A stretch of 44,413 nt of DNA from a virus (lineage: Duplodnaviria > Heunggongvirae > Uroviricota > Caudoviricetes): the IMG/VR virus record IMGVR_UViG_2657245588_000005; one strand, given 5' to 3'. A program made the translations under genes and the position numbers. Each line of letters starts with the position of its first letter. The first letter of the stretch is position 1. Below, piece after piece: positions 1-13,675 of this stretch. The notes under the pieces were generated by a model. The model saw only the letters and a program-made list of their open reading frames with translations. It was not told the origin of the DNA and did not search any database.

Positions 1-1119
1 TCAAATAACCAACTTAACCCATTCCTGACCTCGAGTATCGTTATAGCGATCGGTGGTTGCCTGGACTTTATGTCCTAGTAATGTTTTTGTATCGATACCC
101 TGTGCACGGTACAGCCGTTCTGATAGAGAGCGTTGTTCATGAAATGTTGGCGGAGTTTTTCCTGCTGGTGGAATTATCCCAGCCAGATCCCGTGCTTTGG
201 CAAAGTAGTCGCTCAGGTTGTCTTTACTCATCGGCTTCGGTTGTTTCTGGTGCCGACTATGGATTAGATATGGACTTAATATTCTGTCTCGGCACCCATC
301 AATAACTTCTTTTAACGTTATCCCAATGGCATCACAGCGTAGTGTAAGCGGTAACGCCAGACGCATTCCGGTTTTTCCCTGGGTGATATGCAAGTGTTCG
401 TTCCACACATCTGAAAAACGCATGTGGCAAATGTCATCACGGCGCTGACCAGTAACAATCGCAAGAAGCATTGCGTTACGGATAAAGTGTTTTTCAGGCG
501 TTGCATTGTAAATTTTTTGCCAGTCTTCCATGGTGAGCCTGGCTCTGGTTACTTTAGGGATCGGTTTACGGGTAGCCTCCGGAGGATTCCATCCAGGAGG
601 AACTTCCCCTGCATGCTGTGCTTCTTTATAAATATCAACCCATAATCCACGATTTACTCTCGCTGTGCTGACCATGTCTTTATCCAGCCACTCATCCAGT
701 ATTAATGCAAAGTCTCTTACTTCCAGTTCTTTCAATGGGTGGTTTCCCAGACGGGAAACCAGGTATGCAGCCATTCGAGTTTTTTCTTTGTGAGTTGTAG
801 CTGCAATATCTCCATTTTTCAGTCGCGTGTCCTGTATTTTCAGATATCGATCAACCCATGCCTTTAATCTGATACCCCGACGTTTTGTTGCTGACAGACT
901 TTCATCAATTTTGCGCATGAAATATTCAGCTTCTGCTGCAGCTATTCGCTGATTGGCTGTGGAAGCGATTTTTTCTGCCTTACCTTTGTCTGTTCCGAGT
1001 CCGTGAAATTTTCCAGTCACAGGATTTTTATACTGGTAGTAAACTCTGCCAGTTCTGCGATCAAACTTTTCGTAAAGACCGGCTACGTCAGTGCTGTTTT
1101 TTCGTGGCCTCGGTGACAT
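1..1119 (-). CDS. int: Phage integrase, tyrosine recombinase (lambda Int-like)
   Basis: 372-aa ORF with typical lambdoid integrase features; ATG at 1117-1119, stop at 1-3; overlapped at its 5' end by an excisionase-like ORF. Confidence 0.88.
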   Translation of the reverse strand: MSPRPRKNSTDVAGLYEKFDRRTGRVYYQYKNPVTGKFHGLGTDKGKAEKIASTANQRIAAAEAEYFMRKIDESLSATKRRGIRLKAWVDRYLKIQDTRLKNGDIAATTHKEKTRMAAYLVSRLGNHPLKELEVRDFALILDEWLDKDMVSTARVNRGLWVDIYKEAQHAGEVPPGWNPPEATRKPIPKVTRARLTMEDWQKIYNATPEKHFIRNAMLLAIVTGQRRDDICHMRFSDVWNEHLHITQGKTGMRLALPLTLRCDAIGITLKEVIDGCRDRILSPYLIHSRHQKQPKPMSKDNLSDYFAKARDLAGIIPPAGKTPPTFHEQRSLSERLYRAQGIDTKTLLGHKVQATTDRYNDTRGQEWVKLVI

Positions 1120-1357
1120 GAGTTAAAATCTCCTTCAGTGCATCATCATCGCCAGTATGAATTTCCGGCGCAATTCCCGTTTCACCAGGCCCAACAAATA
1201 CTGCTCGGCGATCTATCAGCCAACGCCCACGAATTTTTTGTGGCCTTGGAACGATGTATCCTAGTTTTCCGTATTTCACCAGGGTAGTGTTTGTTATTGG
1301 GAGACTGAACCGTTTTGGTTTCCACTCGTCGAGCGTTATCAGGTACTGTTCGCTCAT
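1088..1357 (-). CDS. xis: Excisionase-like protein (Xis)
   Basis: Small basic ORF directly upstream of int and overlapping its start; N-terminal 'YLITLDEW' resembles the lambda Xis 'YLTLQEW' motif. ATG at 1355-1357 preferred (GGAG about 9 nt upstream); the track starts at a GTG at 1366. Confidence 0.65.
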   Translation of the reverse strand: MSEQYLITLDEWKPKRFSLPITNTTLVKYGKLGYIVPRPQKIRGRWLIDRRAVFVGPGETGIAPEIHTGDDDALKEILTHVTEATKKQH

Positions 1358-1418
1358 GGCTATCACTCCGGAACGCGCCAGTTGCAGAATATCAACGACA
1401 ACTGGCGACGGTTGAACA

Positions 1419-3860
1419 TTAAAAATCAGCCTGACTCGGGATCAGTTTTTGCCAGATAACTGAAACGTATTTTGCCTGGTAACGGGCGTCATCAAGTGCA
1501 TTATGGCGCTCACCTTCGAATGGAATAGCCGTTCTGGCATCGAAGTCTATGGCTTTCCCCAGCTCAACGATTGTGCGTACATCGCGATCGTTGTAGTAAC
1601 GCCACGGGCAGGGGATCCCCTGCCGTTCGTATGAACGGCGCAAAATCGTGTTGTCGAAGTTGGCTCCATTTCCCCAGACCTGAACAAAAAATTCACCGGA
1701 GTTTTCGTCGATAAATTCCCGCAATTGTAACAGTGCATCATCTAACGGGATTTCATCGGTCATAATGGCAGATTGCGCTTCGCGTGATTGCTTAAGCCAC
1801 CATTTAATGGTGTCCCGATCAATGACTCCGCCAGCAGTTTCCAGATCGATAGTCTTACTAAATTCCGGTCCCATATCTCCGGTTTGCGGATCGAAAAATA
1901 TTGCACCTATTGAGATGATCGGGGCATCAGGATTTTTTCCCATGGTTTCAAGGTCGATCATTAGATGGTCACACGTCCTGCTGGTGGATGTGATTTCTTG
2001 ATGACCGTTCACCTTAATTGAGTGATCTGCCGTCTCGCCAGTTTCATTATCGCTATCGTGATGCTGATTGCCGCCAGTGTTCTCCTTGTGTGGATGTTCA
2101 GCGCCTTCCATTTCCTCCGGATCATCTTCCTGAACTTCAACCTGATACTCTTCATCGAATGTTTCCTGGTATGTTGCGTCGCCCATCACCGCGCCACAAT
2201 CAGGGCAGTTGCCGCCGCCGGTCTGACCGCAGGCGGTGCAGACTTTTTCCACTTCCTGTTGCGCCACTGGTTCGGATTGTTTCGTTTCTGGCTCGTTTTG
2301 TAACGCATTTGGGCTGTTTTGTTCCGCTTTTTGGTCGTTCCGTTCCGATTCATGCTGGTTCTGGTTCACAGAATCGCGAGTCTGGATCCCTTTGACCCAT
2401 TTCGGATCATTAGGGTCGCTAATCCCCTCAACAAATTCACCACGCGATACAGCAAGTAACTTATCGGCGTCAGGCTGGCTGATATTGGCTGCCTGCATAA
2501 TTTTGTTTACTTCGTCAGCGGTGACTTTTACTTGGTTAGCGGAACTCACCTGCGACTGAGCATCCAGCGACTGCGCGTTCTGGCCATGTTCAGTTGTATC
2601 CGGTTCCATTGTTTCAGTTGTTGCCTGTTCACCTGCCATTGCGTCAGATGGTTGTGGTTTTTCTTCTTCTGTTTCACGCTCAGTAACCACCTCGCGGTTA
2701 ATTTCTTCCAGGATATCTTTTTCCGGCGTATGCCGGGCAGCTGTGAGAGTTTCCTTGCTGGGGTTCTCGTGATCAGTTTCCGTCAAATAGGCGTTGATAT
2801 ACCCCTGAAGGCGTCCCGGGTAGTGATAAAATTCAGGGTGTGCGCTTCGGATAAGTGCAAAAATAGCGGCGCGGGAATAGTCCAGAATACCCGGGGTTGC
2901 ACGAAGTGCTGCGGACCATTCTTTGAACGGACTTTCTTTGTTCAGGACTACTTCTTTTGCGCGACGATAAACGCTGCCCGGAATTTCATAAATATTAAAA
3001 TCCATCGGAAGTGTGGCTGCTGCAATCTCCACATCCAGTGTGTCGAGGGTGTGTACTAAATTCGGATTGCGATCGGTTTTGTTCCCACCGCCAGCATTAG
3101 CACCGGAAGCCGTGCGGGTGATGCGTGAAACACGATTTCCTTTCATCCACTCTTTTGTCAGCAGACCCCGATCAGTGTAGTCAGCGTCTAGGTATGCTTC
3201 GAAAAAAGCAGTTATTAGTCCCAGGTCTGAATTACCAGGATTAGGGAAAACTTTGTCAGTGTCACGAACCAGTTTGTGGAGGTCGCGAATCTCCAGCGAG
3301 TCGAGCAGACTGGTTTTATGCGAAATAGCCAGGGCAGTAACAGCCGGTAGTTCTTCAGCCCGTGCAATGTGTAATGCCTGGAGTTCGTCGCGTGAAACGT
3401 GCGTTACTGGTTTTTCGCTGCCGTGTTGAGCAAGCCAACGAATGGGCAGTTCCTGACCGGAGACAGGCAGAAGCATGCTCTCCTCAATCTCAGTCATGGC
3501 TTCGCCGTTGATGTTGGTATTGTCAGTGCTGGCTGGTTTGTCCTGAACAGAGGGGGAAGGGCCGATAAATGTCATTGTGATGCCATCTTTCCCGCCTTTT
3601 TCATAGCGGTTGCAGAATTCAGTATCAAACACGCCTTCTGGCGGAAGGTCGTCAACAACGGGCAAATTGACGCGGACGGGTTTTTTAAAGTCGTCTTCAT
3701 CATAATCGTTGTCATCCATTGCGGTAATGCAGCGGGAGATTGCAACAGATAATTTTTTTGCTGTAGTCCAGTAAAAACCACCTTTAATTCCTAGGCGTTT
3801 TCTTACTTTGTCATTTTTTGCTTCGCAATATAGTGCAAATTCTTCTTTATCAGTGCTCAT
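1419..3860 (-). CDS. Large phage exonuclease with C-terminal DnaQ/DEDDh-like 3'-5' exonuclease domain (often annotated exodeoxyribonuclease VIII-like)
   Basis: 813 aa; C-terminal motifs 'MIDLETMG' (Exo I D-x-E), '[12 protein letters not shown]' (Exo II) and '[10 protein letters not shown]' (Exo III H-x4-D); acidic low-complexity middle and a CxxC-x-CPDCG zinc-ribbon-like motif; sits in the early-left operon where exo/recE normally lies. Confidence 0.7.
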
Positions 3861-3953
3861 TATTGGTAAACCTCATCACAGATTTAAGGGTGAACAAATC
3901 TCTGCCATTGCTGACATATAAGAATGAAACTGGATATTTATTACGGTGCTGTT

Positions 3954-4145
3954 TTAAAATCCTGCCGGGATTTCGTTATTATCCTGGTGAATAACTTTAT
4001 CGACCGGATAACAGTTGCCTGGAATTTTCTGTTCGGTTGCTGCTGCCATACATTCCTGCATTGTTCTGTGAACACTGACTGCAATATCAACTGGCTCTCC
4101 GGAAACAAGAAAAACCGTCAGAATAAGTGCAAATACTGGATTCAT
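3954..4145 (-). CDS. ydfD: YdfD-like small lysis protein (63 aa, N-terminal hydrophobic segment)
   Basis: Internal ATG at 4143-4145 gives 'MNPVFALILTVFLVSGEPVDIAV...'; start overlaps the dicB stop (ATGA); recalled similarity to Qin YdfD and conserved position downstream of dicB. Confidence 0.6.
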   Translation of the reverse strand: MNPVFALILTVFLVSGEPVDIAVSVHRTMQECMAAATEQKIPGNCYPVDKVIHQDNNEIPAGF

Positions 4146-4330
4146 TGTGCACATCCTTTTGGCATCAGACGTAAACGGGCCAGCATTGAAACAATGCATA
4201 CTTTATTTAATAACTCCCGTTCGTGTTTTCTTTTGTTAATGGCATCTTCAGTAAATACAGGATTACTGATAGTGACACCAATTTCAAAACAACCTTCAGA
4301 CGTATTAACGTTTGGTAATAACGTTTTCAT
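4142..4330 (-). CDS. dicB: Cell division inhibitor DicB
   Basis: 62-aa product 'MKTLLPNVNTSEGCFEIGVTISNPVFTEDAINKRK...LARLRLMPKGCAQ' matches the recalled Qin DicB sequence; GAGGG RBS upstream; dicF-like sequence immediately upstream on the same strand. Confidence 0.75.
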   Translation of the reverse strand: MKTLLPNVNTSEGCFEIGVTISNPVFTEDAINKRKHERELLNKVCIVSMLARLRLMPKGCAQ

Positions 4331-4499
4331 TATCGCGCCCTCAACAATGAGTTTTGTGATGCGGTGCCTGGTGCCTCCAGGTGACGTTAACCAGTTAACA
4401 ATTAACGCCGGATACAGAGAATCCACCCATAACACTGTTTTTGGTTTTAACTGTTCCGCGTGCGCTTAGCCGCATTCACCGCATCACAAAATTCACTTT

Positions 4500-4557
4500 A
4501 AAAAGGGCGGCAGAGCAGTCACGGAGTAAAACTGATACCGCCAAACGTCACCAGAAA
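4500..4557 (-). ncRNA. dicF: DicF small RNA (about 53 nt plus U-tail; ftsZ-targeting sRNA of the dicB operon)
   Basis: Minus-strand sequence UUUCUGGUGACGUUUGGCGGUAUCAGUUUUACUCCGUGACUGCUCUGCCGCCC followed by UUUUU (GC stem plus U-run terminator); matches recalled DicF and lies where dicF sits in Qin, between ydfC and dicB. Confidence 0.65.
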
Positions 4558-4898
4558 ATTGATAACAGAGGGCGTTGCAGTGGGGTTGTCACTTAAGCGT
4601 ATGGTCAACCTGACAACCCGGTGTCCTCAACGGGGGAAGGAATAACCCCGCCATACTTACCGCCGCGCCATTTCGCGGATTGCCACAACCGGAAGCGCAC
4701 GGTCGACGAAAATTTAACGACAGGCTATCTATGAACCAGCTACCTCGCCGTGCGCTTTCGCGTTATGGTCTGACTTTTCAGGGAAATATCCTTTCAGTAA
4801 ACTGTCAGTGCCGGATGCTCACCCGTGTCCGGCGCACGCACTCCACCTCACCCGTGGAGAACTCCTTAATTACCAACCTTAGCTTCGTTGGTTATCTA

Positions 4899-5117
4899 TT
4901 AACGCGGGTATGTAATCATTCTGGCAATGCTTAATGCCGCTGCTTTTTCCAGCCTGGTGATATCCTGCTCCAGAGCGGACAGATTTTCAGCCTGCTTAGC
5001 CCTGGCTTCATTGGCCCATTTCAAATCCTGCGCTGCATTAATTTTCTGGCGCATCCACTCATAAAGTTCATCATCGGTATAGTCTGGCGCGATGATGACG
5101 GGTTCTCGTTTCTGCAT
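4899..5117 (-). CDS. ydfC: YdfC-like small protein of the dicB operon
   Basis: 72-aa ORF with AAGGAG RBS; assigned by position upstream of dicF-dicB as in Qin; function unknown. Confidence 0.5.
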   Translation of the reverse strand: MQKREPVIIAPDYTDDELYEWMRQKINAAQDLKWANEARAKQAENLSALEQDITRLEKAAALSIARMITYPR

Positions 5118-5188
5118 GTCGGCTCCTTGTGGTTAGCGTTGCCTGCTTTTAACCACGTCAGGCGAGGTGGTATCCTCTGAGGGGTCTG

Positions 5189-5545
5189 TTACTCGAGAGG
5201 AAATTGGTTATGAATACAATCAAGTTTTCTTGCCCAGAATGTGGTGGCGAAGTCTTTGACACATCCTTTAAACCGCAGGGCTCTGACAGTTTCGCGGGAG
5301 CCATCTGCAAAAATTGTGGTCACCTTGTAACTGAAGATGAGTCCTCGCAGTTTGATGACGAAATCGTTGACAATATCTTCGGTGCACTCACCAGAGACTT
5401 TCTGAAGTAAAGGCGCATACCGCTTAGTTACCGCTCTGATAATTCTTACCTGTCCGGCAATGGCGCTGATATCAATATAAAGCGCCATCGCTGTTTCTTT
5501 GCTGATCCCTGGACGCCTTCCATTCTGATGTTTGACTTCGCCCAC
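5189..5545 (-). CDS. Alternative hypothetical protein (118 aa) downstream of cI on the same strand (rex/sieB-equivalent position)
   Basis: GTG start at 5543-5545 with AGAGGA 7 nt upstream; same orientation as the repressor. Mutually exclusive with the plus-strand zinc-ribbon ORF; codon-position composition does not separate them. Confidence 0.3.
   Translation of the reverse strand: MGEVKHQNGRRPGISKETAMALYIDISAIAGQVRIIRAVTKRYAPLLQKVSGECTEDIVNDFVIKLRGLIFSYKVTTIFADGSRETVRALRFKGCVKDFATTFWARKLDCIHNQFPLE
5210..5410 (+). CDS. Small zinc-ribbon protein (CPECGG...CKNCGH) with acidic tail; hypothetical
   Basis: 66 aa from ATG 5210 with GAGAGG RBS at 5195-5200; two CxxC pairs about 20 residues apart; possible hairpin plus T-run downstream (5460-5500). 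Overlaps the alternative minus-strand ORF 5189..5545; only one is likely real. Confidence 0.35.
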   Translation: MNTIKFSCPECGGEVFDTSFKPQGSDSFAGAICKNCGHLVTEDESSQFDDEIVDNIFGALTRDFLK

Positions 5546-5841
5546 TGAGAAATCCTCTGTTTCCCCTTAACGCCGGGGTAGCGGAACAAAAACCTGCTGC
5601 ATAGTTATTAAAGTTGAACCCTGCCGTCATGTTCTTACGCCTCGGGCTGGCTACTTAACCCCTGACCACTGCCTGGTAACTCGAAGTATTGCCCTGCATT
5701 CTGTAGGATGGGGTGAGGGAATGAATGAAGTTTAGAAAAACGAACTTTTCAGGTCAATGTTTTTTTATCAAAACATTTTAAGCAGGCAGCTGTTAAGCCA
5801 TCACCACGATGGCATACAGTTAATCAAATAGATGAGGTTGG

Positions 5842-6480
5842 TTAAATATCTTGTTGAATTTTAAAGCATACGCCCAATATGCAAGATAGATCATCCAGCA
5901 TAATTGAAGGGTAGCGAGGATTCGTGGGGACTAAAAGAATATCCGGCCCTTCTATCTCCAGTTTACGAATGACAGGTGTTGTGGTCCCTTTGGGTAAGGC
6001 AAGGACAATATTTCCTGGTTGTACGGTTCGATCGGGATCAACAAAAACTGTTGAACCATTTGGGATGGAAACTCCCCCACCAGATGTTGACATACTGTCA
6101 CTCTCTAGAACAACTGCAAAGGTATTGACCGGGATTTCTCCGACAAGCTGCACACAAGAGGTTATTGAGGAATTTTTCATATAATCACTCCAGCTTGCTG
6201 CCTGCTGAAGTGATAGTAGCGGAACCGTTTTTATCGGCGGTAAAGATAGATCAAGCGAATCACCTGTATTTAACTCTCCTCCATTAAGAAGCCAATTTTC
6301 GTTTACTTTCAATATTTTTGCCAGTGAACTTATGTAACGCGAGGACGGCGCTCCTCCACCGTTCATCCATTGACTTACGGAGCCTTTTGATGCGCCAGTG
6401 CCATTGACAAGGTCTTTGCCTTTCAGGTTTAGCGCATGCATACGTTGGGTTATGCGTTCAGATATAGTTTGCTTGCTCAT
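5842..6480 (-). CDS. CI-like repressor (N-terminal HTH, C-terminal S24 LexA-type autopeptidase domain)
   Basis: 212 aa; C-terminal 'LESDSMS...' Ser motif and 'PVIRKLE' Lys consistent with a Ser-Lys dyad; divergent from the cro-like gene across a promoter/operator-like intergenic region. Confidence 0.85.
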   Translation of the reverse strand: MSKQTISERITQRMHALNLKGKDLVNGTGASKGSVSQWMNGGGAPSSRYISSLAKILKVNENWLLNGGELNTGDSLDLSLPPIKTVPLLSLQQAASWSDYMKNSSITSCVQLVGEIPVNTFAVVLESDSMSTSGGGVSIPNGSTVFVDPDRTVQPGNIVLALPKGTTTPVIRKLEIEGPDILLVPTNPRYPSIMLDDLSCILGVCFKIQQDI

Positions 6481-6571
6481 GTTTTGATTTTAAAACACAG
6501 ATGGTTTTGTTTCTTGACTTTCTTTGGTTTTGATTATTAAACTTTTGACGTTCAGTTTTATGGAGCGACTC

Positions 6572-6814
6572 ATGAAAAAATCAGAAGTATTAGGCTATTT
6601 TGGCGGAGTTGTTAAAACAGCCGCAGCTCTAGGAACGTCAAAAACCACAGTCAGCATGTGGGGGGAAGAGGTTCCGTGGAAATGGGCGTTGCTAATTCAG
6701 GCAGTCACTGCCGGGGCGCTCAAATATGAGTTACACATACCGACGGTTGTCATTCCCGGTTCTGATCATAATCCGCCTTCTAACCAAGGGGGGATTCATG
6801 AAAATCAAGCATGA
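6572..6814 (+). CDS. Cro/YdaS-like HTH regulator
   Basis: Starts 'MKKSEVLGYFGGVVKTAAALGTSKTTVSMW' (HTH); GGAG RBS 6 nt upstream of ATG 6572; divergent from the cI-like gene. Confidence 0.7.
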   Translation: MKKSEVLGYFGGVVKTAAALGTSKTTVSMWGEEVPWKWALLIQAVTAGALKYELHIPTVVIPGSDHNPPSNQGGIHENQA

Positions 6815-7223
6815 ACACATCCGCATGGCGATGAATGCCTGGGCGCATCCGGACGGCGAAAAAGTACCGGCTGCGAAAATTACCAAAGCGTATTTCGAGC
6901 TGGGAATGACGTTCCCGGAACTGTATGACGACAGCCATCCGGAAGCCCTGGCTCGCAATACCCAGAAAATTTTCCGCTGGGTGGAGAAAGACACCCCTGA
7001 TGCAGTTGAAAAAATTCAGGCGTTGTTACCAGCGATCGAAAAGGCAATGCCACCTTTGCTGGTGGCCAGAATGCGCAGCCACAGTTCAGCTTATTTTCGG
7101 GAGTTGGTGGAGACGCGGGAGCGACTGGTGAGAGACGCTGATGATTTTGTCGCAGTGGCAATCGCCGGTTTCAATCAGATGAACCGTGGTGGCCCGGCAG
7201 GAAATGCTGTGGCAGTACATTGA
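6798..7223 (+). CDS. YdaT-like protein (cII-position regulator of the Rac-type immunity region)
   Basis: 141 aa from ATG 6798 with G-rich RBS; overlaps the cro-like 3' end; position and size as Rac YdaT. Confidence 0.55.
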   Translation: MKIKHEHIRMAMNAWAHPDGEKVPAAKITKAYFELGMTFPELYDDSHPEALARNTQKIFRWVEKDTPDAVEKIQALLPAIEKAMPPLLVARMRSHSSAYFRELVETRERLVRDADDFVAVAIAGFNQMNRGGPAGNAVAVH

Positions 7224-7294
7224 CTGACAATAGTCATATCGAATCGCTTCCGGCAACTCGTGAGTAAAAAGATTCGGTATCAGAAGAGGTGAGT

Positions 7295-8365
7295 ATGGCT
7301 AACGCCTGGCTCAGATTATGGCATGACATGCCAAATGACCCTAAGTGGCGAACAATTGCCAGGGTGTCAGGGCAGCCAATTGCAACAGTGATGGCAGTGT
7401 ATATCCACCTCCTGGTGAGCGCGTCACGAAATGTCACGCGAGGTCACATTGATGTCACGACAGAAGATTTGGCAAGTGCGCTCGACGTGACAGAAGAGGT
7501 AATTGATTCAATTTTGCAGACGATGCAGGGGCGGGTACTTGATGGTGATTTAATCACTGGATGGGAAAAACGCCAGGTGCTGAAAGAGGACAACGGCAAT
7601 ATTTCGCAAACCGCAAAATCTCCGGCAGAGCGCAAGAGGGCGCAGCGAGAGAGGGAAAGAAAGCGGGAACAAAATGGCGATTGTCACGGCGAGTCACGAA
7701 ATGTCACGCACATGTCACGACGAGTCACGACAGATAAAGATACAGATAAAGATACAGATCAAGAAGATCAAAACACTATGGTCCATGGCGTAAAAAACGC
7801 CACGAACCAGGCAGGGGATGTTCAGACCGTCACTCCTGGCCAGCCCGCAGGCACGACACCGGAAGCCGATTCAGCGTATGCGCTGAAAGCCGATTCGGGC
7901 GCTGTGCAGCAGGTGATGACCGCAAGGCAGGAGCAATCACACCAACTTCAGCAGCCTGAAGCCGATTCCGCCATTCAGCGGGAAGCCGATCGGGTAGTCC
8001 CGGAAAACACCGGGCAGCCTGTGGGACGAGTGGATTATCCTGATGTGTTCGAACAGGTCTGGCGGGAATACCCGTTGCGTGCCGGGGCAAACCCGAAGAA
8101 ATCCGCTTTCAGTGCCTGGAAAGCCAGATTACGCGAGGGGGTGCCACCAGAGGCCATGCTGGATGGCGTGAGGCGTTACGCAAGATACCTTGCGGCTACC
8201 GGGAAAACGGGAACGGAATTTGTTCAGCGAGCGACGACGTTTTTTGGACCGGACCGGAATTTTGAAAACCCCTGGCTGCTCCCGGTAAGCGGCACGAACA
8301 ACCAGCGTTGTGTGAATCATATTTCTGAACCGGATAACGAAATTCCGCCGGGCTTCAGGGGGTAA
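7295..8365 (+). CDS. Replication initiation / replisome organizer protein (lambda O-like / YdaU-like)
   Basis: 356 aa with AGAGGTGA RBS; two clusters of GTCACG iterons inside its 5' half (origin embedded in the gene, as in lambda O). Confidence 0.7.
   Translation: MANAWLRLWHDMPNDPKWRTIARVSGQPIATVMAVYIHLLVSASRNVTRGHIDVTTEDLASALDVTEEVIDSILQTMQGRVLDGDLITGWEKRQVLKEDNGNISQTAKSPAERKRAQRERERKREQNGDCHGESRNVTHMSRRVTTDKDTDKDTDQEDQNTMVHGVKNATNQAGDVQTVTPGQPAGTTPEADSAYALKADSGAVQQVMTARQEQSHQLQQPEADSAIQREADRVVPENTGQPVGRVDYPDVFEQVWREYPLRAGANPKKSAFSAWKARLREGVPPEAMLDGVRRYARYLAATGKTGTEFVQRATTFFGPDRNFENPWLLPVSGTNNQRCVNHISEPDNEIPPGFRG
7421..7491. repeat. Iteron cluster 1 (GTCACG repeats at about 10-11 bp spacing, plus one inverted copy)
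   Basis: GTCACG at 7423, 7433, 7454, variant GTCACA at 7443, and inverted CGTGAC at 7486. Confidence 0.6.
7680..7790. repeat. Iteron cluster 2 (five direct GTCACG copies at helical periodicity) with adjacent tandem GATAAAGATACAG repeat; candidate ori
   Basis: GTCACG at 7683, 7693, 7703, 7714 and 7724, followed by 'gataaagatacagataaagatacagatcaag'. Confidence 0.6.
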
Positions 8366-8405
8366 GTGTTAATTTCTGGTCATGAGGTAATTTTCAGGAG
8401 GGCTT

Positions 8406-8828
8406 GTGGCAAAAGTTTTTACACAAGAAGAGCGGGAAAAAATTAAAGGACAGGTTCTTGAACTCGTACGCCAGAGTGGGCGCGAGACGTTACGACAACT
8501 GGAAGCTAAAACTGGGGCAACAAGATATCTGATGAGCGTTCTGGCCAGAGAGCTGGTTGCCAGTGGCGATGTATACAATTCTGGCTACGGGTTATTCCCG
8601 TCTGAACAGGCTCGTAAAGACTGGCAAAATGCCCGCAAAAAATTATCGAGGGCAAAGCTGAAGAAACCGGTTGTGGTTGATCCGGACCTTATCTGGTCGT
8701 TACCTGACGGAGAAATACGTCGCTACGACAGTCGCCTAAACATAATCTGTCGCGAGTGCCGGAAGAGTGAAGCTATGCAGCGTGTACTGGCTTTCTATCA
8801 GGGTAATTTTCAGGAGGCGGTACTGTGA
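8406..8828 (+). CDS. Hypothetical phage protein (140 aa)
   Basis: GTG start at 8406 with CAGGAGGG RBS; no recognisable motif. Confidence 0.5.
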   Translation: MAKVFTQEEREKIKGQVLELVRQSGRETLRQLEAKTGATRYLMSVLARELVASGDVYNSGYGLFPSEQARKDWQNARKKLSRAKLKKPVVVDPDLIWSLPDGEIRRYDSRLNIICRECRKSEAMQRVLAFYQGNFQEAVL

Positions 8829-8885
8829 GTGAAATTAGCTATCAGGCTTCAATTACCGCTGGCATTCGCATCAAAGGAGAGGAGC

Positions 8886-9242
8886 ATGGAAATAAAACCA
8901 GAGGATGAGTTAAGCAATATCGTTTTATTTCCGGTAAAAGAGGATGACCCTCGTAATCAGGTTAATTTTCTTTATGAGCCATCGGAAAGACCATATTGTC
9001 ATCACGCCTCTGTCCGGGTTGACGAAAAAGAGCGTCAGGTCCGCTGTAAAATCTGCGGTGCAGTTGTGGAGCCATTTGACTGGATGCTCTCTGTGGCGAA
9101 AAGAGAAACCAGACTGGCAGATGATGTAAGGCTCTTGCGTCAGGAGGAGCGGGAAAGGCGAAAAAATATAGAAAAGCTAATTCAGATTGAGCGTAACGCG
9201 AAAGCGCGGATACGCAGGGCGACAAAATCCAGAACTGAATAA
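8886..9242 (+). CDS. Hypothetical phage protein with Cys/His motif and basic coiled-coil tail (118 aa)
   Basis: ATG 8886 with AAAGGAGAGGAG RBS; 'CHH...CKIC' motif. Confidence 0.5.
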   Translation: MEIKPEDELSNIVLFPVKEDDPRNQVNFLYEPSERPYCHHASVRVDEKERQVRCKICGAVVEPFDWMLSVAKRETRLADDVRLLRQEERERRKNIEKLIQIERNAKARIRRATKSRTE

Positions 9243-9335
9243 TTAAATTTAGCTCTGTTAAAAATTTAATCCTTAACCGGAGGGATTTCTGCACCCTCAG
9301 AACATCAGGAGGCCGCCCGAAAGGGCGGTAGTTAA

Positions 9336-9518
9336 ATGCGAAAGTTTAAAATAATTATTGAAACGGGAATAGCCGGTGGAGATTTCGAGGATGAATTCGA
9401 AGTGGATGATGATGCGACGCCTGATGAAATACATGACGAAGCAAAAGATATTTTCTTTAACTACTGCAATTACTCATATCACGAAATAAAAGACGAAGAG
9501 GAAGAACAAAATGGCTGA
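9336..9518 (+). CDS. Small acidic hypothetical protein (60 aa)
   Basis: ORF with Asp/Glu-rich composition; a stable hairpin (9311-9329) sits between an upstream AGGAGG and the start. Confidence 0.35.
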   Translation: MRKFKIIIETGIAGGDFEDEFEVDDDATPDEIHDEAKDIFFNYCNYSYHEIKDEEEEQNG

Positions 9519-9687
9519 TTTTGGTTCAACTAAATACAACGTCAGTTTTGAAGAATGGCATGAACTGTTAATGGACTATGCAGAGTTACGTGGTGGCAGT
9601 GCTGCTGATGCTGAAGCATGGCGTGATGATTATGAAGCAGGAAAAACTCCGGTCGAAGCATATTGTGATGAGTGGGGCGATGAATGA
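9511..9687 (+). CDS. Small hypothetical protein (58 aa, MADFGSTKYNVSFEEWHELL...)
   Basis: Not in the ORF track (under 60 aa); ATG 9511 with GAGGAAG RBS; stop overlaps the next start (ATGA). Confidence 0.4.
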   Translation: MADFGSTKYNVSFEEWHELLMDYAELRGGSAADAEAWRDDYEAGKTPVEAYCDEWGDE

Positions 9688-9941
9688 GCGAGGTTAATTA
9701 TCAGGAAGGGCATGAAACGGCGGGGCAAGCAAAAACAGTGGCATGGCGATATCGCTACGTGAAAAAAAAGGCGTTACGGACTTTCAGGAGAAGTAGTGGT
9801 CTGGTGACTGGAAATATGTACCGAAAAAAGAGGATTGTAACGACAGGCCGAACTATGAAATTCAGGCCTTATTCACTGCCCCGCCAGTCCCGGTTACATC
9901 AGAAGAACTGGTTAAAGCTGTGCACTTTTATGAACAACTAA
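9684..9941 (+). CDS. Hypothetical small protein; reading frame ambiguous (possible frameshifted or nonsense-interrupted gene)
   Basis: ATG 9684 is coupled to the upstream stop, but after the A8 run (9762-9769) this frame becomes Arg/Lys-rich junk-like, while the -1 frame (9797-10000) encodes a protein-like 67-aa segment behind an in-frame TAG at 9794. Confidence 0.3.
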   Translation: MSEVNYQEGHETAGQAKTVAWRYRYVKKKALRTFRRSSGLVTGNMYRKKRIVTTGRTMKFRPYSLPRQSRLHQKNWLKLCTFMNN

Positions 9942-10170
9942 AACGCGAAAATCCACCAGCATCCGGAAACCTGATTACAGATTCCCAGATAAGGCAATGA
10001 GCTACCTGGCGCAGAACGGGCTGATAAGTATGGGGAATGTTTTACGATGAATATTTAGACTAAAGAGTTTGTAACGCTATGTAAGTGATTTTTTCTGGTT
10101 TAGATATTTATATGTTCGGCCAAATTGAGGTGTGTTTAAATGTAATTGCACATTGATTGTAGGAGGAATA

Positions 10171-10350
10171 ATGAAAAACGCATTGCAGTTTTTGTTTGTT
10201 GCGTTCTGGTTGTTCGTATCATGTATGCCCATCATCTTCACAGCAAGGTATATGGAAAAAGTTGATGTTTTGATATTAATATTTGGATATATAAATGCCC
10301 TTTTTTTAGGGGTGTTCATGGCGGTCATGTGCATTGAATACTGGCGGTAA
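10171..10350 (+). CDS. Small hydrophobic membrane protein (59 aa, two predicted TM segments)
   Basis: ATG 10171 with perfect AGGAGG RBS; AT-rich promoter-like region upstream; sequence 'MKNALQFLFVAFWLFVSCMPIIFTARYMEKVDVLILIFGYINALFLGVFMAVMCIEYWR'. Confidence 0.5.
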   Translation: MKNALQFLFVAFWLFVSCMPIIFTARYMEKVDVLILIFGYINALFLGVFMAVMCIEYWR

Positions 10351-10609
10351 ATACAGCGAACGCCATTGGTTTAGTTGGATATTTACTGTGCCGGACAAAA
10401 ACGGTTTGCGGGGAAATCTTAGTTAAGTAGAATGACTGCGGGTGCTTGAGGCTATCTGTCTCAGGCATGAACACCAAAAGGCAGATAGAGAAAAGCCCCA
10501 GTTAACATTACGCGTCCTGCAAGACGCTTAACATTAATCTGAGGCTCAATCTATGAACGGCAAATCTAGGTTAGCCTCTTACGTGCCGAAAGGCAAGGAG
10601 AAGCAGGCT

Positions 10610-10765
10610 ATGAAGCAGCAAAAGGCGATGTTAATCGCCCTGATCGTCATCTGTTTAACCGTCATTGTGACGGCACTGGTAACGAGGAAAGACCTCTGCG
10701 AGGTACGAATCCGAACCGGCCAGACGGAGGTCGCTGTCTTCACAGCTTACGAACCTGAGGAGTAA
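10610..10765 (+). CDS. hokD: Hok/Gef-family type I membrane toxin (HokD/RelF-like)
   Basis: 51 aa 'MKQQKAMLIALIVICLTVIVTALVTRKDLCEVRIRTGQTEVAVFTAYEPEE'; AAGGAG RBS; in-frame upstream extension from 10553; intrinsic terminator downstream. Confidence 0.8.
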   Translation: MKQQKAMLIALIVICLTVIVTALVTRKDLCEVRIRTGQTEVAVFTAYEPEE

Positions 10766-10834
10766 GAGACCTGGCGGGGGAGAAATCCCTCGCCACCTCT
10801 GATGTGTCAGGCATCCTCAACGCACCCGCACGTA

Positions 10835-10860
10835 ACCCGCTTCGGCGGGTTTTGTTTTTT
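10835..10860 (+). terminator. Rho-independent terminator after hok
   Basis: ACCCGC-TTCG-GCGGGT hairpin followed by TTTTGTTTTTT. Confidence 0.7.
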
Positions 10861-10932
10861 CCTGGCATTCTGGTTTACAATTCGCACGCCAGCCTGAACA
10901 ACTGGCACCTGCTGCGCCAGCAGAGACAACCG

Positions 10933-11139
10933 ATGGCGCACGATACCAAATTACACAATTCTAATGATTCTGCCGTCTTTGCCAGTAGGTGCGGACGGCG
11001 TTTTCACGCATTCAAATCAGACTGGTTCCAGCATCCTCCATGCACTGAAGAGCAGGCGGAATGGATAATTCAGTGTTACCGCAGGCGCGGATACGAGGTT
11101 AAGAAAGCTCTTAGCCTCGACTACCGTCACTGGATAATC
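10933..11139 (+). pseudogene. nin-region small gene interrupted by the IS66-family insertion (5' portion)
   Basis: ORF from ATG 10933 runs into the IS left end at 11140; after the IS is removed the frame continues 23 codons to a TAA at 13672-13674, which overlaps the RBS of the next gene. Confidence 0.5.
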
Positions 11140-11220
11140 GTAAGCGTCGTCTCAGCACCGTCTGGCAGATCCTGAAATTCCTGAGAGAATAGTGGACACC
11201 AAATATGGTGGACGCTATCC

Positions 11221-11625
11221 ATGAAATCATTAACCGCAGTGCGTAAAAAAAGCCCTAATTATCCCGTTGAGTTCAAAATCAAAATGGTTGAACTCTCGCA
11301 TCGACCAGAGATCTCCGTAGCGCAACTCGCTCGTGAGCATGGGATCAACGATAATTTGCTGTTCAAGTGGCGCCAGTACTGGCGCGAAGGAAAACTACGT
11401 CCTCCTTCAACAACAGAAAACAACGTGCCTGAGCTGCTCCCGATAACACTTGATGCCGAAGATGTTGTCCCTACAACCTCCCCCCGGTCACAACCTGTAG
11501 CTGCTGCGACACCTGAATCACTCAATATCAGCTGTGAAGTGACGTTCCGGCACGGATCACTCCGTCTGAATGGTGCCATCAGCGAAAATATCCTGAACCT
11601 GCTGATACGGGAGCTCAAACGTTGA
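11221..11625 (+). CDS. IS66-family accessory protein TnpA (orf1)
   Basis: 134 aa with N-terminal HTH-like region; first ORF of the IS66 arrangement. Confidence 0.8.
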   Translation: MKSLTAVRKKSPNYPVEFKIKMVELSHRPEISVAQLAREHGINDNLLFKWRQYWREGKLRPPSTTENNVPELLPITLDAEDVVPTTSPRSQPVAAATPESLNISCEVTFRHGSLRLNGAISENILNLLIRELKR

Positions 11626-11969
11626 TCCCATTACCATCAGGGACAAAGATCTGGCTGGTCGCTGGCATCACCGATATGAGAAACGGCTTCAACGGCCTGG
11701 CGGCAAAGGTGCAGACGACGCTGAAAGACGATCCGATGTCAGGTCACGTTTTTATCTTCCGTGGGCGTAATGGCAGTCAGGTAAAGCTCCTCTGGTCTAC
11801 CGGCGATGGACTGTGTCTGCTGACCAAACGGCTGGAGCGCGGCCGCTTCGCCTGGCCGTCAGCCCGGGATGGCAAAGTGTTCCTCACACCGGCACAGCTG
11901 GCGATGCTGCTGGAAGGTATCGACTGGCGGCAGCCTAAAAGACTGCTTACGTCCCTGACTATGTTGTAA
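11622..11969 (+). CDS. IS66-family TnpB (orf2)
   Basis: 115 aa; overlaps orf1 stop; conserved IS66 orf2 size and position. Confidence 0.8.
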   Translation: MIPLPSGTKIWLVAGITDMRNGFNGLAAKVQTTLKDDPMSGHVFIFRGRNGSQVKLLWSTGDGLCLLTKRLERGRFAWPSARDGKVFLTPAQLAMLLEGIDWRQPKRLLTSLTML

Positions 11970-12017
11970 GCCTCTTTATCCTAGTCGACGCTGAATGAGC
12001 CTGGTAATATACCCGGT

Positions 12018-13553
12018 ATGAGCAGCTCACTTCCTGACGATATCAATGCACTGAAACGTCTCCTTGCCGAACAGGAGGCGCTGAACCGTGCCCTGCAGGA
12101 AAAGCTGAACGAGCGTGAACGCGAAATAGACCATCTGCAGGCACAGCTGGATAAGCTGCGCCGGATGAACTTCGGCAGCCGCTCGGAAAAAGTCTCCCGT
12201 CGTATCGCACAGATGGAAGCTGACCTGAAGGCACTTCAGAAAGAAAGTGATACCCTTACCGGTCGGGTTGACGACCCGGCCGTGCAGCGCCCGCTGCGTC
12301 AAACCCGCACCCGCAAACCGTTCCCCGAATCACTCCCCCGCGATGAAAAACGGCTGCTGCCGGCAGCGTCATGCTGCCCGGAATGTGGAGGCTCGCTGAG
12401 CTATCTGGGTGAGGATGCCGCTGAACAGCTGGAGCTGATGCGCAGCGCCTTCCGGGTTATCCGGACTGTACGTGAAAAGCATGCCTGTACTCAGTGCGAT
12501 GCCATCGTGCAGGCCCCCGCGCCTTCACGGCCCATCGAGCGGGGTATCGCAGGACCGGGGCTGCTGGCCCGCGTGCTGATCTCAAAGTATGCAGAGCACA
12601 CCCCGCTGTACCGCCAGTCTGAAATGTACGGCCGCCAGGGCGTGGAGCTGAGTCGTTCACTGCTGTCGGGCTGGGTGGATGCATGCTGCCGGCTACTGTC
12701 ACCGCTGGAAGAAGCGCTTCAGGACTATGTGCTGACTGACGGTAAGCTCCATGCTGATGACACGCCTGTCCCGGTGCTGTTGCCAGGCAATAAGAAAACG
12801 AAGACCGGGCGGTTATGGACCTACGTTCGTGACGACCGTAACGCCGGGTCAACGCTGGCGCCGGCGGTGTGGTTCGCTTACAGCCCGGACAGAAAAGGCA
12901 TCCATCCGCAGACCCATCTTGCGGGGTTCAGTGGTGTACTGCAGGCGGATGCATACGCCGGGTTCAACGAGCTGTACCGGGATGGCCGGATAACGGAAGC
13001 CGCCTGTTGGGCTCACGCCCGCCGTAAAATCCACGATGTGCACGTTCGCACCCCGTCAGCCCTGACGGAGGAAGCGCTGAAACGGATCGGCGAACTGTAC
13101 GCCATCGAGGCAGAGATAAGGGGAATGACGGCGGAGCAGCGCCTTGCCGAACGTCAGTTGAAAACGAAACCGCTGCTGAAATCCCTGGAAAGCTGGCTGC
13201 GTGAAAAGATGAAAACCCTGTCGCGACACTCAGAACTGGCGAAAGCGTTCGCATACGCCCTGAACCAGTGGCCGGCGCTGACGTACTATGCAGATGATGG
13301 CTGGGCTGAGGCGGACAATAACATCGCTGAAAATGCGTTGCGGATGGTCAGTCTGGGCCGCAAAAACTACCTGTTCTTCGGTTCGGATCATGGAGGAGAG
13401 CGGGGAGCGCTGCTGTACAGCCTGATCGGGACGTGCAAACTGAACGGAGTGGAGCCAGAAAGCTACCTCCGCTATGTCCTTGACGTCATAGCCGACTGGC
13501 CGATAAACCGGGTCGGCGAACTGCTCCCCCTGGCGCGTAGCACTGCCGACTGA
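12018..13553 (+). CDS. IS66-family transposase (TnpC, DDE)
   Basis: 511 aa with N-terminal coiled coil, CxxC zinc-finger region and DDE core, typical of IS66 TnpC. Confidence 0.88.
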
Positions 13554-13675
13554 ATAACACATCCCCGTCAATACGGTTCTTGCTGCACGCTTACGGATAA
13601 TCTCAGTCAGACTCCCTTACTCCGAACGCCCACCGCGTTCATCCCGCACATACCAGCAACGGATCTGGAGGTAAC

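Follow-up and report, generated by a model that had tools for sequence, protein, structure and literature searches.

We analysed a DNA stretch of 44,413 nucleotides from a virus of the class Caudoviricetes (IMG/VR record IMGVR_UViG_2657245588_000005; the whole stretch is called the window below), which represents a lambdoid prophage of the Qin/DicB type with HK97-type head genes and spans the region from the integrase (1–1119) to the tail fibres. A gene on the plus strand at 7295–8365 (1071 nt, 356 amino acids), found both as an open reading frame and as a coding sequence of the PGAP annotation, encodes a protein that matches PHROG 3729, 'replication initiation protein', with an E value of 7e-257. 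NCBI names the corresponding cluster 'phage replisome organizer', and the RefSeq label in the record examined is 'hypothetical protein'. Two arrays of the hexamer GTCACG lie inside this initiator gene and are followed by an A+T-rich tract and a palindrome, an arrangement that we read as a probable replication origin.

Iteron arrays, A+T-rich tract and palindrome in the initiator gene

The hexamer occurs 26 times in the window, and nine of these copies fall inside 307 bp, at 7423, 7433, 7454, 7683, 7693, 7703, 7714 and 7724 on the plus strand and at 7486 on the minus strand. Random placement of 26 sites brought nine of them within 307 bp in none of 100,000 trials. Array 1 (7423–7459, plus strand) combines the exact copies at 7423, 7433 and 7454 with a degenerate GTCACA at 7443, at spacings of 10, 10 and 11 bp. 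An inverted copy (7486–7491, minus strand, CGTGAC on the plus strand) lies 26 bp past array 1 and encodes D64-V65-T66. Array 2 (7683–7729, plus strand) consists of five GTCACG copies spaced by 10, 10, 11 and 10 bp and encodes the start of a disordered linker. Nine exact copies and one GTCACA thus account for the nine or ten occurrences in two clusters at 10–11 bp spacing that a preliminary description of this DNA had reported, and its placement of both clusters in the 5′ half of the gene agrees with their positions at nt 129–197 and 389–435 of 1071. A window-wide scan for 6-mer chains at helical spacing returned only the GTCACG arrays, the adjacent tract and one three-copy GAAGCA chain, and block shuffles of the sequence yielded 0.16 chains of at least three copies and none of at least four. 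The GAAGCA copies (three at 9613–9655, 21-bp spacing) lie inside a small open reading frame at 9511–9687 and probably represent a short in-frame coding repeat.

Array 2 is directly followed by an A+T-rich, purine-rich tract (7730–7780; 51 bp, 71% A+T, 71% purine on the plus strand), which we regard as a candidate DNA-unwinding element. The tract begins with 2.9 tandem copies of ACAGATAAAGAT (7730–7764); the unit GATAAAGATACAG, given earlier for tandem repeats after the second cluster, is this repeat written in a different register. The G+C minimum of the gene (27.5% at 7740–7779, compared with 54% for the gene overall) is located immediately 3′ of array 2. A palindrome with 13-nt arms and a 5-nt loop, TGGTCCATGGCGT aaaaa ACGCCACGAACCA, occupies 7779–7809 and, folded as single-stranded DNA, reaches −8.7 kcal/mol (z −2.8). 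Arrays, tract and palindrome are all placed in the 5′ 45% of the gene. The locus contains both at least three direct repeats at helical-turn spacing and an adjoining A+T-rich region predicted to be able to unwind, as is expected of an iteron origin.

Promoter and terminator scans gave no signal above shuffles, the sole notable match being the palindrome, scored as a terminator-like hairpin on the minus strand. Neither a DnaA-box cluster nor an IHF site was found near the arrays, and Rfam returned no RNA family inside the initiator gene. Two GATC (Dam) sites at 7757 and 7766, 9 bp apart, are present within the A+T-rich tract (GATCAAGAAGATC), and the only further GATC between 7200 and 8400 is at 7988.

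Conservation of the hexamers at the DNA level

The hexamers of array 1 are read as TCA-CGA (S-R), GTC-ACG (V-T), GGT-CAC (G-H) and GTC-ACG (V-T), and those of array 2 as T-GTC-AC (C-H), TCA-CG (S-R), GTC-ACG (V-T), TCA-CG (S-R) and GTC-ACG (V-T). Because array 2 uses all three reading frames, the hexamers do not constitute a peptide repeat.

Orthologues were retrieved from phage records by tblastn, with residues 1–160 as query. N-terminal domains of ~70% amino acid identity are encoded by Pseudomonas phages (phi1 and relatives) and by Aeromonas phage pAEv1818, and the phi1 and pAEv1818 genes share 64–70% nucleotide identity with the window over codons 1–125. Both genes carry four direct GTCACG-type sites and one inverted site at unchanged codon positions; the inverted copy is kept in phi1 and is degenerate in pAEv1818, where a perfect copy sits 10 bp downstream. 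The linkers of both contain three or four GTCACG, followed by an A/T-purine tract. The preliminary description had made its proposal depend on the presence of the repeats in orthologous genes, and both arrays are indeed found in phi1 and pAEv1818.

We then compared synonymous sites, taking those degenerate codons that encode the same residue in the window, phi1 and pAEv1818 genes. Codons are identical in all three genes in 9 of 10 cases in which the third base lies in a hexamer versus 8 of 63 cases elsewhere (Fisher p=2e-6). Residue 52 drifts between I, V and A, and the first base of its codon completes the hexamer in both orthologues. A scan of viral contigs with the alignment of the N-terminal domain yielded 80 loci, 100% identical, so that the E. 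coli copies inform on within-species variation only; among 77 such copies (24 variants), substitutions are concentrated in the spacers, and the copy number of ACAGATAAAGAT ranges from ~2 to 5. These comparisons indicate that the repeats act at the level of DNA. An explanation of the hexamers as a peptide repeat was ruled out by the reading frames together with the synonymous-site test.

Two arrays and variable iteron words across the family

A wider scan with an alignment of five N-terminal domains as query and one genome per species gave 80 loci with 37–99% identity, mainly from Gamma-, Beta- and Alphaproteobacteria, with the addition of a few contigs of metagenome-assembled genomes labelled as other phyla. 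When the first 750 nt of each gene are considered, the commonest 6-mer is nearly always arranged in two arrays, at about nt 129–190 and nt 330–490. Nearly all of the 75 homologous loci examined have array 2 (nt ~330–490), and a word occurs at least three times in the linker (nt 311–560) in 66 of these 75 loci, each from a different species. In 36 of the 66 loci the same 6-mer recurs at least twice at nt 106–250, compared with 10.3 on average and at most 21 after permutation of words between loci; the same-word score in the control region (nt 561–705) was 1/65. Between successive copies, a distance of 10 bp is commonest (142 cases), ahead of 11 bp (35), 21 bp (13) and 20 bp (8).

The word itself varies around the general form NNNACG: GTCACG is used by 27 loci, which are mostly at least 65% identical to the window, CGAACG by 22, GTAACG by 6, GTGACG by 4, GCAACG by 3 and GGAACG by 2. 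The pattern recurs in Ralstonia phage Firinga, with GCAACG, and in a Manatee Spring phage, with CGAACGC, and the bases that flank the hexamer carry little information. At least five word classes track subfamilies of the N-terminal domain, as expected if the repeat word of an iteron origin co-varies with the DNA-binding domain of its initiator. Iteron number shifts in 21-nt steps, equivalent to two iterons, which keeps both the reading frame and the helical phase; for example, a 7-residue insert, TCHGVSR, in E. coli and E. albertii variants adds two phased sites.

Equivalents of the A/T tract in homologues are built from GATAAA, ACAGAT or AAG. Perfect hairpins (stem of at least 6, loop of 3–5) are enriched at nt 401–450 (14/70 loci) and nt 451–500 (13/70), compared with ~3 in most other bins, the exceptions being nt 1–50 (9) and nt 551–600 (8). 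This enrichment, just past the A/T tract, makes the palindrome a third recurrent element; its stem sequences differ between homologues. A generic hairpin score did not discriminate (6.6 for nt 401–640 against 6.2 for nt 1–240). The N-terminal domain family comprises 2252 clusters at 50% identity (E<=1e-3), or 1013 at E<=1e-10, and the module is carried by 678 of 5426 complete E. coli genomes (about one in eight).

Domain organization of the initiator and a candidate specificity helix

AlphaFold2 predicts a confident helical N-terminal domain with a helix-turn-helix (residues 56–63 and 67–77) and a beta wing (78–88), encoded at 7295–7576 on the plus strand (residues 1–94), and the predicted structure superimposes on the winged-helix fold of the DnaD N-terminal domain (DnaD-NTD) and RepA_N type. 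The DNA of array 1 corresponds to the end of helix 3 and to a loop at residues 46–55, which has the lowest predicted local distance difference test (pLDDT) values of the domain and at which homologues carry insertions of 7 or 14 residues. The inverted iteron, D64-V65-T66, sits in the turn between the helices 56–63 and 67–77. Residues 128–244 are predicted to be disordered, and array 2, tract and palindrome encode this linker. The DNA signals thus occupy the segments of the protein with the least structural constraint, as the arrays encode a loop of the N-terminal domain and the disordered linker.

Between the winged-helix domain and the linker, 7622–7675 (plus strand) encodes a basic helix, ERKRAQRERERKRE (residues 110–127; predicted helix 110–126). 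Residues 114 and 117 lie on one face of this helix and, outside iteron-encoded residues, have the highest mutual information with the iteron word among ~60 homologues, a signal that is confounded by phylogeny. The residue pairs at 114/117 are K/Q with GTCACG, A/W with CGAACG, V/Y with GTAACG, T/Y with GTGACG and S/H with GCAACG, which hints at these two positions as a possible specificity determinant.

The linker leads into a helical C-terminal domain (residues 245–332, 8027–8290, plus strand; pLDDT 85–96), presumably a module for recruitment of a host factor or helicase, and into a C-terminal tail (residues 333–356, 8291–8362, plus strand) ending in ..QRCVNHISEPDNEIPPGFRG / ..VNHISEPDNEIPPGFRG, which matches the last ~22–24 residues of host DnaT. 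The tail matches the NCBIfam DnaT model with an E value of 7e-4 and 19.3 bits against a cut-off of 201, at profile positions 156–179 of 179, and also the PDB DnaT chains 6aep, 2ru8 and 9zbt; its motif shows little or no variation among 14 homologues of the C-terminal domain. The single-stranded DNA-binding domain of DnaT (NF002770 / PF17948) is absent from the window protein, which carries the tail only.

A Pfam scan of the initiator protein found no family above threshold. With E values up to 10, the lambda O family Phage_rep_O was not listed, a result that excludes only a meaningful match, since HMMER filters drop most matches above ~E 0.1; RepA_N (PF06970) gave no match in the Pfam scans either. 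A sub-threshold match to Phage_rep_org_N (PF09681) at residues 1–129 (E 0.008, 16.6 bits against a cut-off of 23.3), whose alignment covers the whole profile at residues 5–123, is accompanied by a match to TIGR01714 (15.5 bits against a cut-off of 49.8). A distant kinship with Phage_rep_org_N is therefore likely, at a level below that of curated membership. The designation of the gene as O-like in the preliminary description is apt for its position and probable role, and not for homology, given a DnaD-NTD/RepA_N-like winged helix and no match to lambda O.

Modularity and possible helicase recruitment

Among relatives, the N-terminal domain and its iterons are joined as a module to unrelated C-terminal domains, and the neighbouring genes differ as well: among other cases, phi1 has a primase-helicase in this place, pAEv1818 an ATPase of the IstB/DnaC-like type, and Firinga, like at least nine genomic loci, a DnaB-type helicase. 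The DUF977 neighbour found in the window occurs in only 2 of 75 loci, which leaves the N-terminal domain as the sole constant gene part. Conversely, the C-terminal domain of the window protein is shared with Rep of Shigella phage 75/02 Stx (64% amino acid identity from residue 158), which has a different N-terminal domain, different repeats and a DnaC gene downstream.

The repeats of the 75/02 Stx initiator gene follow the two-array logic of the window with the second array inverted: GGGGCTTC / AAGGGGCT occurs twice in the part encoding the N-terminal domain at 11-bp spacing (3078–3105 of the 75/02 Stx sequence), and inverted copies of the GAAGCCCC type occur twice in the linker (3331–3360 of that sequence), likewise at 11-bp spacing, followed by a (CAGGAA)n tract, the same palindrome as in the window and the DnaC gene.

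The pAEv1818 Rep contains a whole C-terminal DNA-binding domain of DnaT (E 5e-17 to PDB DnaT and PF17948), and prophage variants of E. coli O157 carry the whole DnaT DNA-binding domain in place of the tail. In 75/02 Stx and pAEv1818, Rep is directly followed by a DnaC-like gene, an adjacency that mirrors the dnaT-dnaC operon of the host (PMC13377028). A DnaB, DnaC or P-like gene was found neither downstream of the window initiator nor elsewhere in the prophage, which extends the earlier remark that no DnaC/P-type loader gene follows. We hypothesize from these comparisons that the C-terminal module engages DnaC-DnaB or the restart-primosome machinery, which in this prophage would be the host's own.

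Prophage context

The early right region contains, in this order, a cI-like repressor gene, a P22-Cro-like gene, a YdaT/cII-like gene, the initiator gene and a DUF977 / Ren-like gene, followed by small genes with no assigned function. The annotation of the prophage includes no par genes, and its terminase module (HNH, P27-type small subunit) is located ~10 kb from the initiator gene. Over positions 1–11139 the window matches an annotated E. coli chromosome with 100% identity.

The sole nearby difference is an IS66-family element at 11140–13594 (HTH_Tnp_1 orfA, TnpB_IS66 and a 511-residue DDE_Tnp_IS66 transposase), which is absent from the otherwise identical prophage of E. coli 4/2-1 and is inserted in the region of a small hypothetical gene, immediately upstream of a DUF968 gene. 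The cI-like repressor is encoded on the minus strand by an open reading frame at 5842–6480 (212 amino acids, HTH_3 and Peptidase_S24). RefSeq annotates only its 3′ 339 nt (5842–6180) in the identical sequence, as 'LexA family protein'; the annotated start appears to be too far downstream, because the full open reading frame extends over 5842–6480. Typical cargo of Qin-type prophages includes the DicF antisense small RNA at 4505–4556 (minus strand, Rfam 76.7 bits), beside dicB and ydfD, and the sok antitoxin RNA at 10440–10615 (plus strand, 112 bits), upstream of hokD.

A probable origin of replication inside its initiator gene

Taken together, we consider it probable that the arrays are the initiator-binding sites of a replication origin which, with the A+T-rich tract and the palindrome, is contained within the initiator gene. 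This reading is based on (i) the conservation of synonymous sites in the hexamers, (ii) the maintenance of arrays and tract across genera with different C-terminal domains and (iii) the change of the word with the subfamily of the N-terminal domain. Comparison with relatives in this way strongly supports the earlier proposal that, as in lambda, an iteron origin lies within the gene of its initiator.

In the mechanism that we infer for binding, bridging, melting and helicase recruitment, prophage induction would start rightward early transcription (cro, the cII-like gene and rep) and hence synthesis of the initiator, whose N-terminal part, comprising the winged-helix domain and the basic helix, would bind the hexamer iterons. 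As the iterons recur once per helical turn, they lie on one face of the DNA. Oligomerization on the five sites of array 2 would bend the DNA, possibly with a bridge to array 1, 260 bp upstream, and bending would melt the neighbouring tract. The C-terminal domain with its DnaT tail motif would then bring in the host DnaB-DnaC helicase system. The surface loop and the disordered linker that the arrays encode would accept whatever peptide the iterons specify.

Several points weigh against assigning an origin to these arrays. Co-variation of word and N-terminal domain is partly built in for array 1, which lies inside the sequence encoding that domain, and it is confounded by ancestry. Array 1 is not detectable in some distant members, so that bridging between two arrays is not essential throughout the family. 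No small plasmid with the module as sole replicon was found in a plasmid collection, in which the 11 matching records are large plasmids, mislabelled chromosomes or 51-kb phage-like circles of Pseudomonas. The openly accessible literature that was searched contains no replication assay for the family and no description of an origin family of this kind, and neither a 2026 paper on the preprimosome nor a 2014 review gives a function for the DnaT tail.

Three other explanations have to be weighed. The arrays might be mainly control sites, for autoregulation of rep by a roadblock or for handcuffing against re-initiation, with initiation taking place elsewhere. Plasmid iterons serve initiation and control alike (PMC3401445), and the position of array 1, which lies in coding sequence at a distance of 260 bp from the A/T tract, together with its absence from some distant members, would fit an accessory or regulatory role at least for this array. 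We nevertheless regard control as the main function as unlikely: the 44-kb prophage contains no other phased repeat array, array 2 always runs directly into an A/T-rich tract, often with a palindrome after it, the canonical layout of an origin, and systems with the same gene plan use their internal repeats as origin (PMC5703833, PMC6316719). That the repeats bind another factor, such as a partition or centromere-like protein, a terminase or a host regulator, and merely hitch-hike with the initiator gene is improbable. Two sets of about five direct repeats at 10–11 bp would also suit some plasmid centromeres and accessory sites of pac or cos, whereas across the 75 loci the neighbours vary around a constant N-terminal domain and the word follows the subfamily of that domain; the lack of annotated par genes, the distance to the terminase genes and the absence of a DnaA-box cluster or IHF site point in the same direction.

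Repeats without any function at the DNA level, as a peptide motif or as debris of replication slippage in a linker under low constraint, are in our view very improbable. Array 2 and the tract do lie in the predicted disordered linker, and the copy number of ACAGATAAAGAT varies in the manner of slippage products. However, the use of all three frames, the conservation of synonymous sites across genera, the helical spacing kept in 75 species and the concentration of E. coli substitutions in spacers rather than hexamers all oppose this explanation, and a nucleotide identity of 64–70% excludes the orthologues as recent horizontal copies.

Returning to the origin reading, its placement and the module structure provide usable annotation for these prophages and for their relatives in O157, Shigella, Pseudomonas and Aeromonas phages. 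Within the family, initiators and iterons vary in matched pairs, a natural set with at least five hexamer words in one architecture that is suited to studies of how origin specificity evolves and to the construction of compatible orthogonal replicons. A DnaT-type tail on a phage initiator that lacks a loader provides a testable lead as to how phages tap the helicase-loading machinery of the host, possibly by mimicry of DnaT. A much more far-reaching proposal, which we put forward as speculative and on balance doubtful, is that of a large proteobacterial initiator family in which recognition words lie inside the gene of the domain that reads them, residues 114 and 117 read the first three bases of NNNACG, and replication starts without a phage loader via the DnaT tail to host DnaC-DnaB or to the PriA restart machinery. 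If true, it would amount to a simple, re-programmable code between initiator and iteron, and helicases would be recruited to a sequence-specific origin by a new route.

Comparison with known replication systems

The arrangement is a textbook one, as in lambda, and does not overturn current understanding; the initiator family is widespread and experimentally unstudied. The lambda origin, consisting of four iterons and a 39-bp high-AT region, lies inside O (PMC6022878). The window locus resembles it in the location of the putative origin in the part of the initiator gene that encodes the linker between a DNA-binding N-terminal domain and a presumed helicase-recruiting C-terminal domain, in the succession of initiator sites and A+T-rich unwinding region (PMC6022878), in the gene order of cI-like repressor, cro, cII-like gene and initiator, and in the exchange of the N-terminal domain and iterons as a module among relatives. 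It differs in that the window protein has no sequence relationship to the O family, in that nine to ten short direct hexamers are divided between two arrays, one of them inside the sequence encoding the N-terminal domain, and in that lambda supplies the loader P whereas this prophage supplies none.

The closest mechanistic parallels are the RepA_N plasmid initiators and phage replisome organizers such as SPP1 G38P. In pSK41 Rep, a member of RepA_N, a DnaD-like winged-helix N-terminal domain binds four Rep boxes located centrally in rep; the linker of the protein is encoded by the origin and is dispensable, and the C-terminal domain is host-specific (PMC5703833). The window locus follows the same plan. 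The RepA_N initiators belong to plasmids of Firmicutes, whereas the window family is found in Proteobacteria and in the context of temperate phages; moreover, the window protein gives no Pfam RepA_N match, its gene contains a second array within the region encoding the N-terminal domain, and its C-terminal domain bears a DnaT-type tail instead of being a DnaG-interacting domain. The direct repeats of SPP1 oriL to which gp38 binds lie inside gene 38, beside an A+T-rich unwinding element (PMC6316719). The window repeats likewise lie within their own initiator gene and are flanked by an A+T-rich tract; SPP1 encodes both loader and helicase (gp39 and gp40), in contrast to this prophage, which encodes neither.

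With E. coli DnaT, the window protein shares the motif of the last 22–24 residues (..SEPDxxIPPGFRG) and not the DnaT domain, and DnaT acts with PriA and PriB at abandoned forks, not at a sequence-specific origin (PMC13377028). By curated sequence thresholds the protein falls outside Phage_rep_O, Phage_rep_org_N, RepA_N and DnaT, and the agreement with known systems is at the level of fold and architecture. Short hexamers recurring once per helical turn, a second array in the sequence encoding the N-terminal domain, a DnaT-type tail and the absence of a phage loader set the window locus apart from lambda, SPP1 and pSK41.

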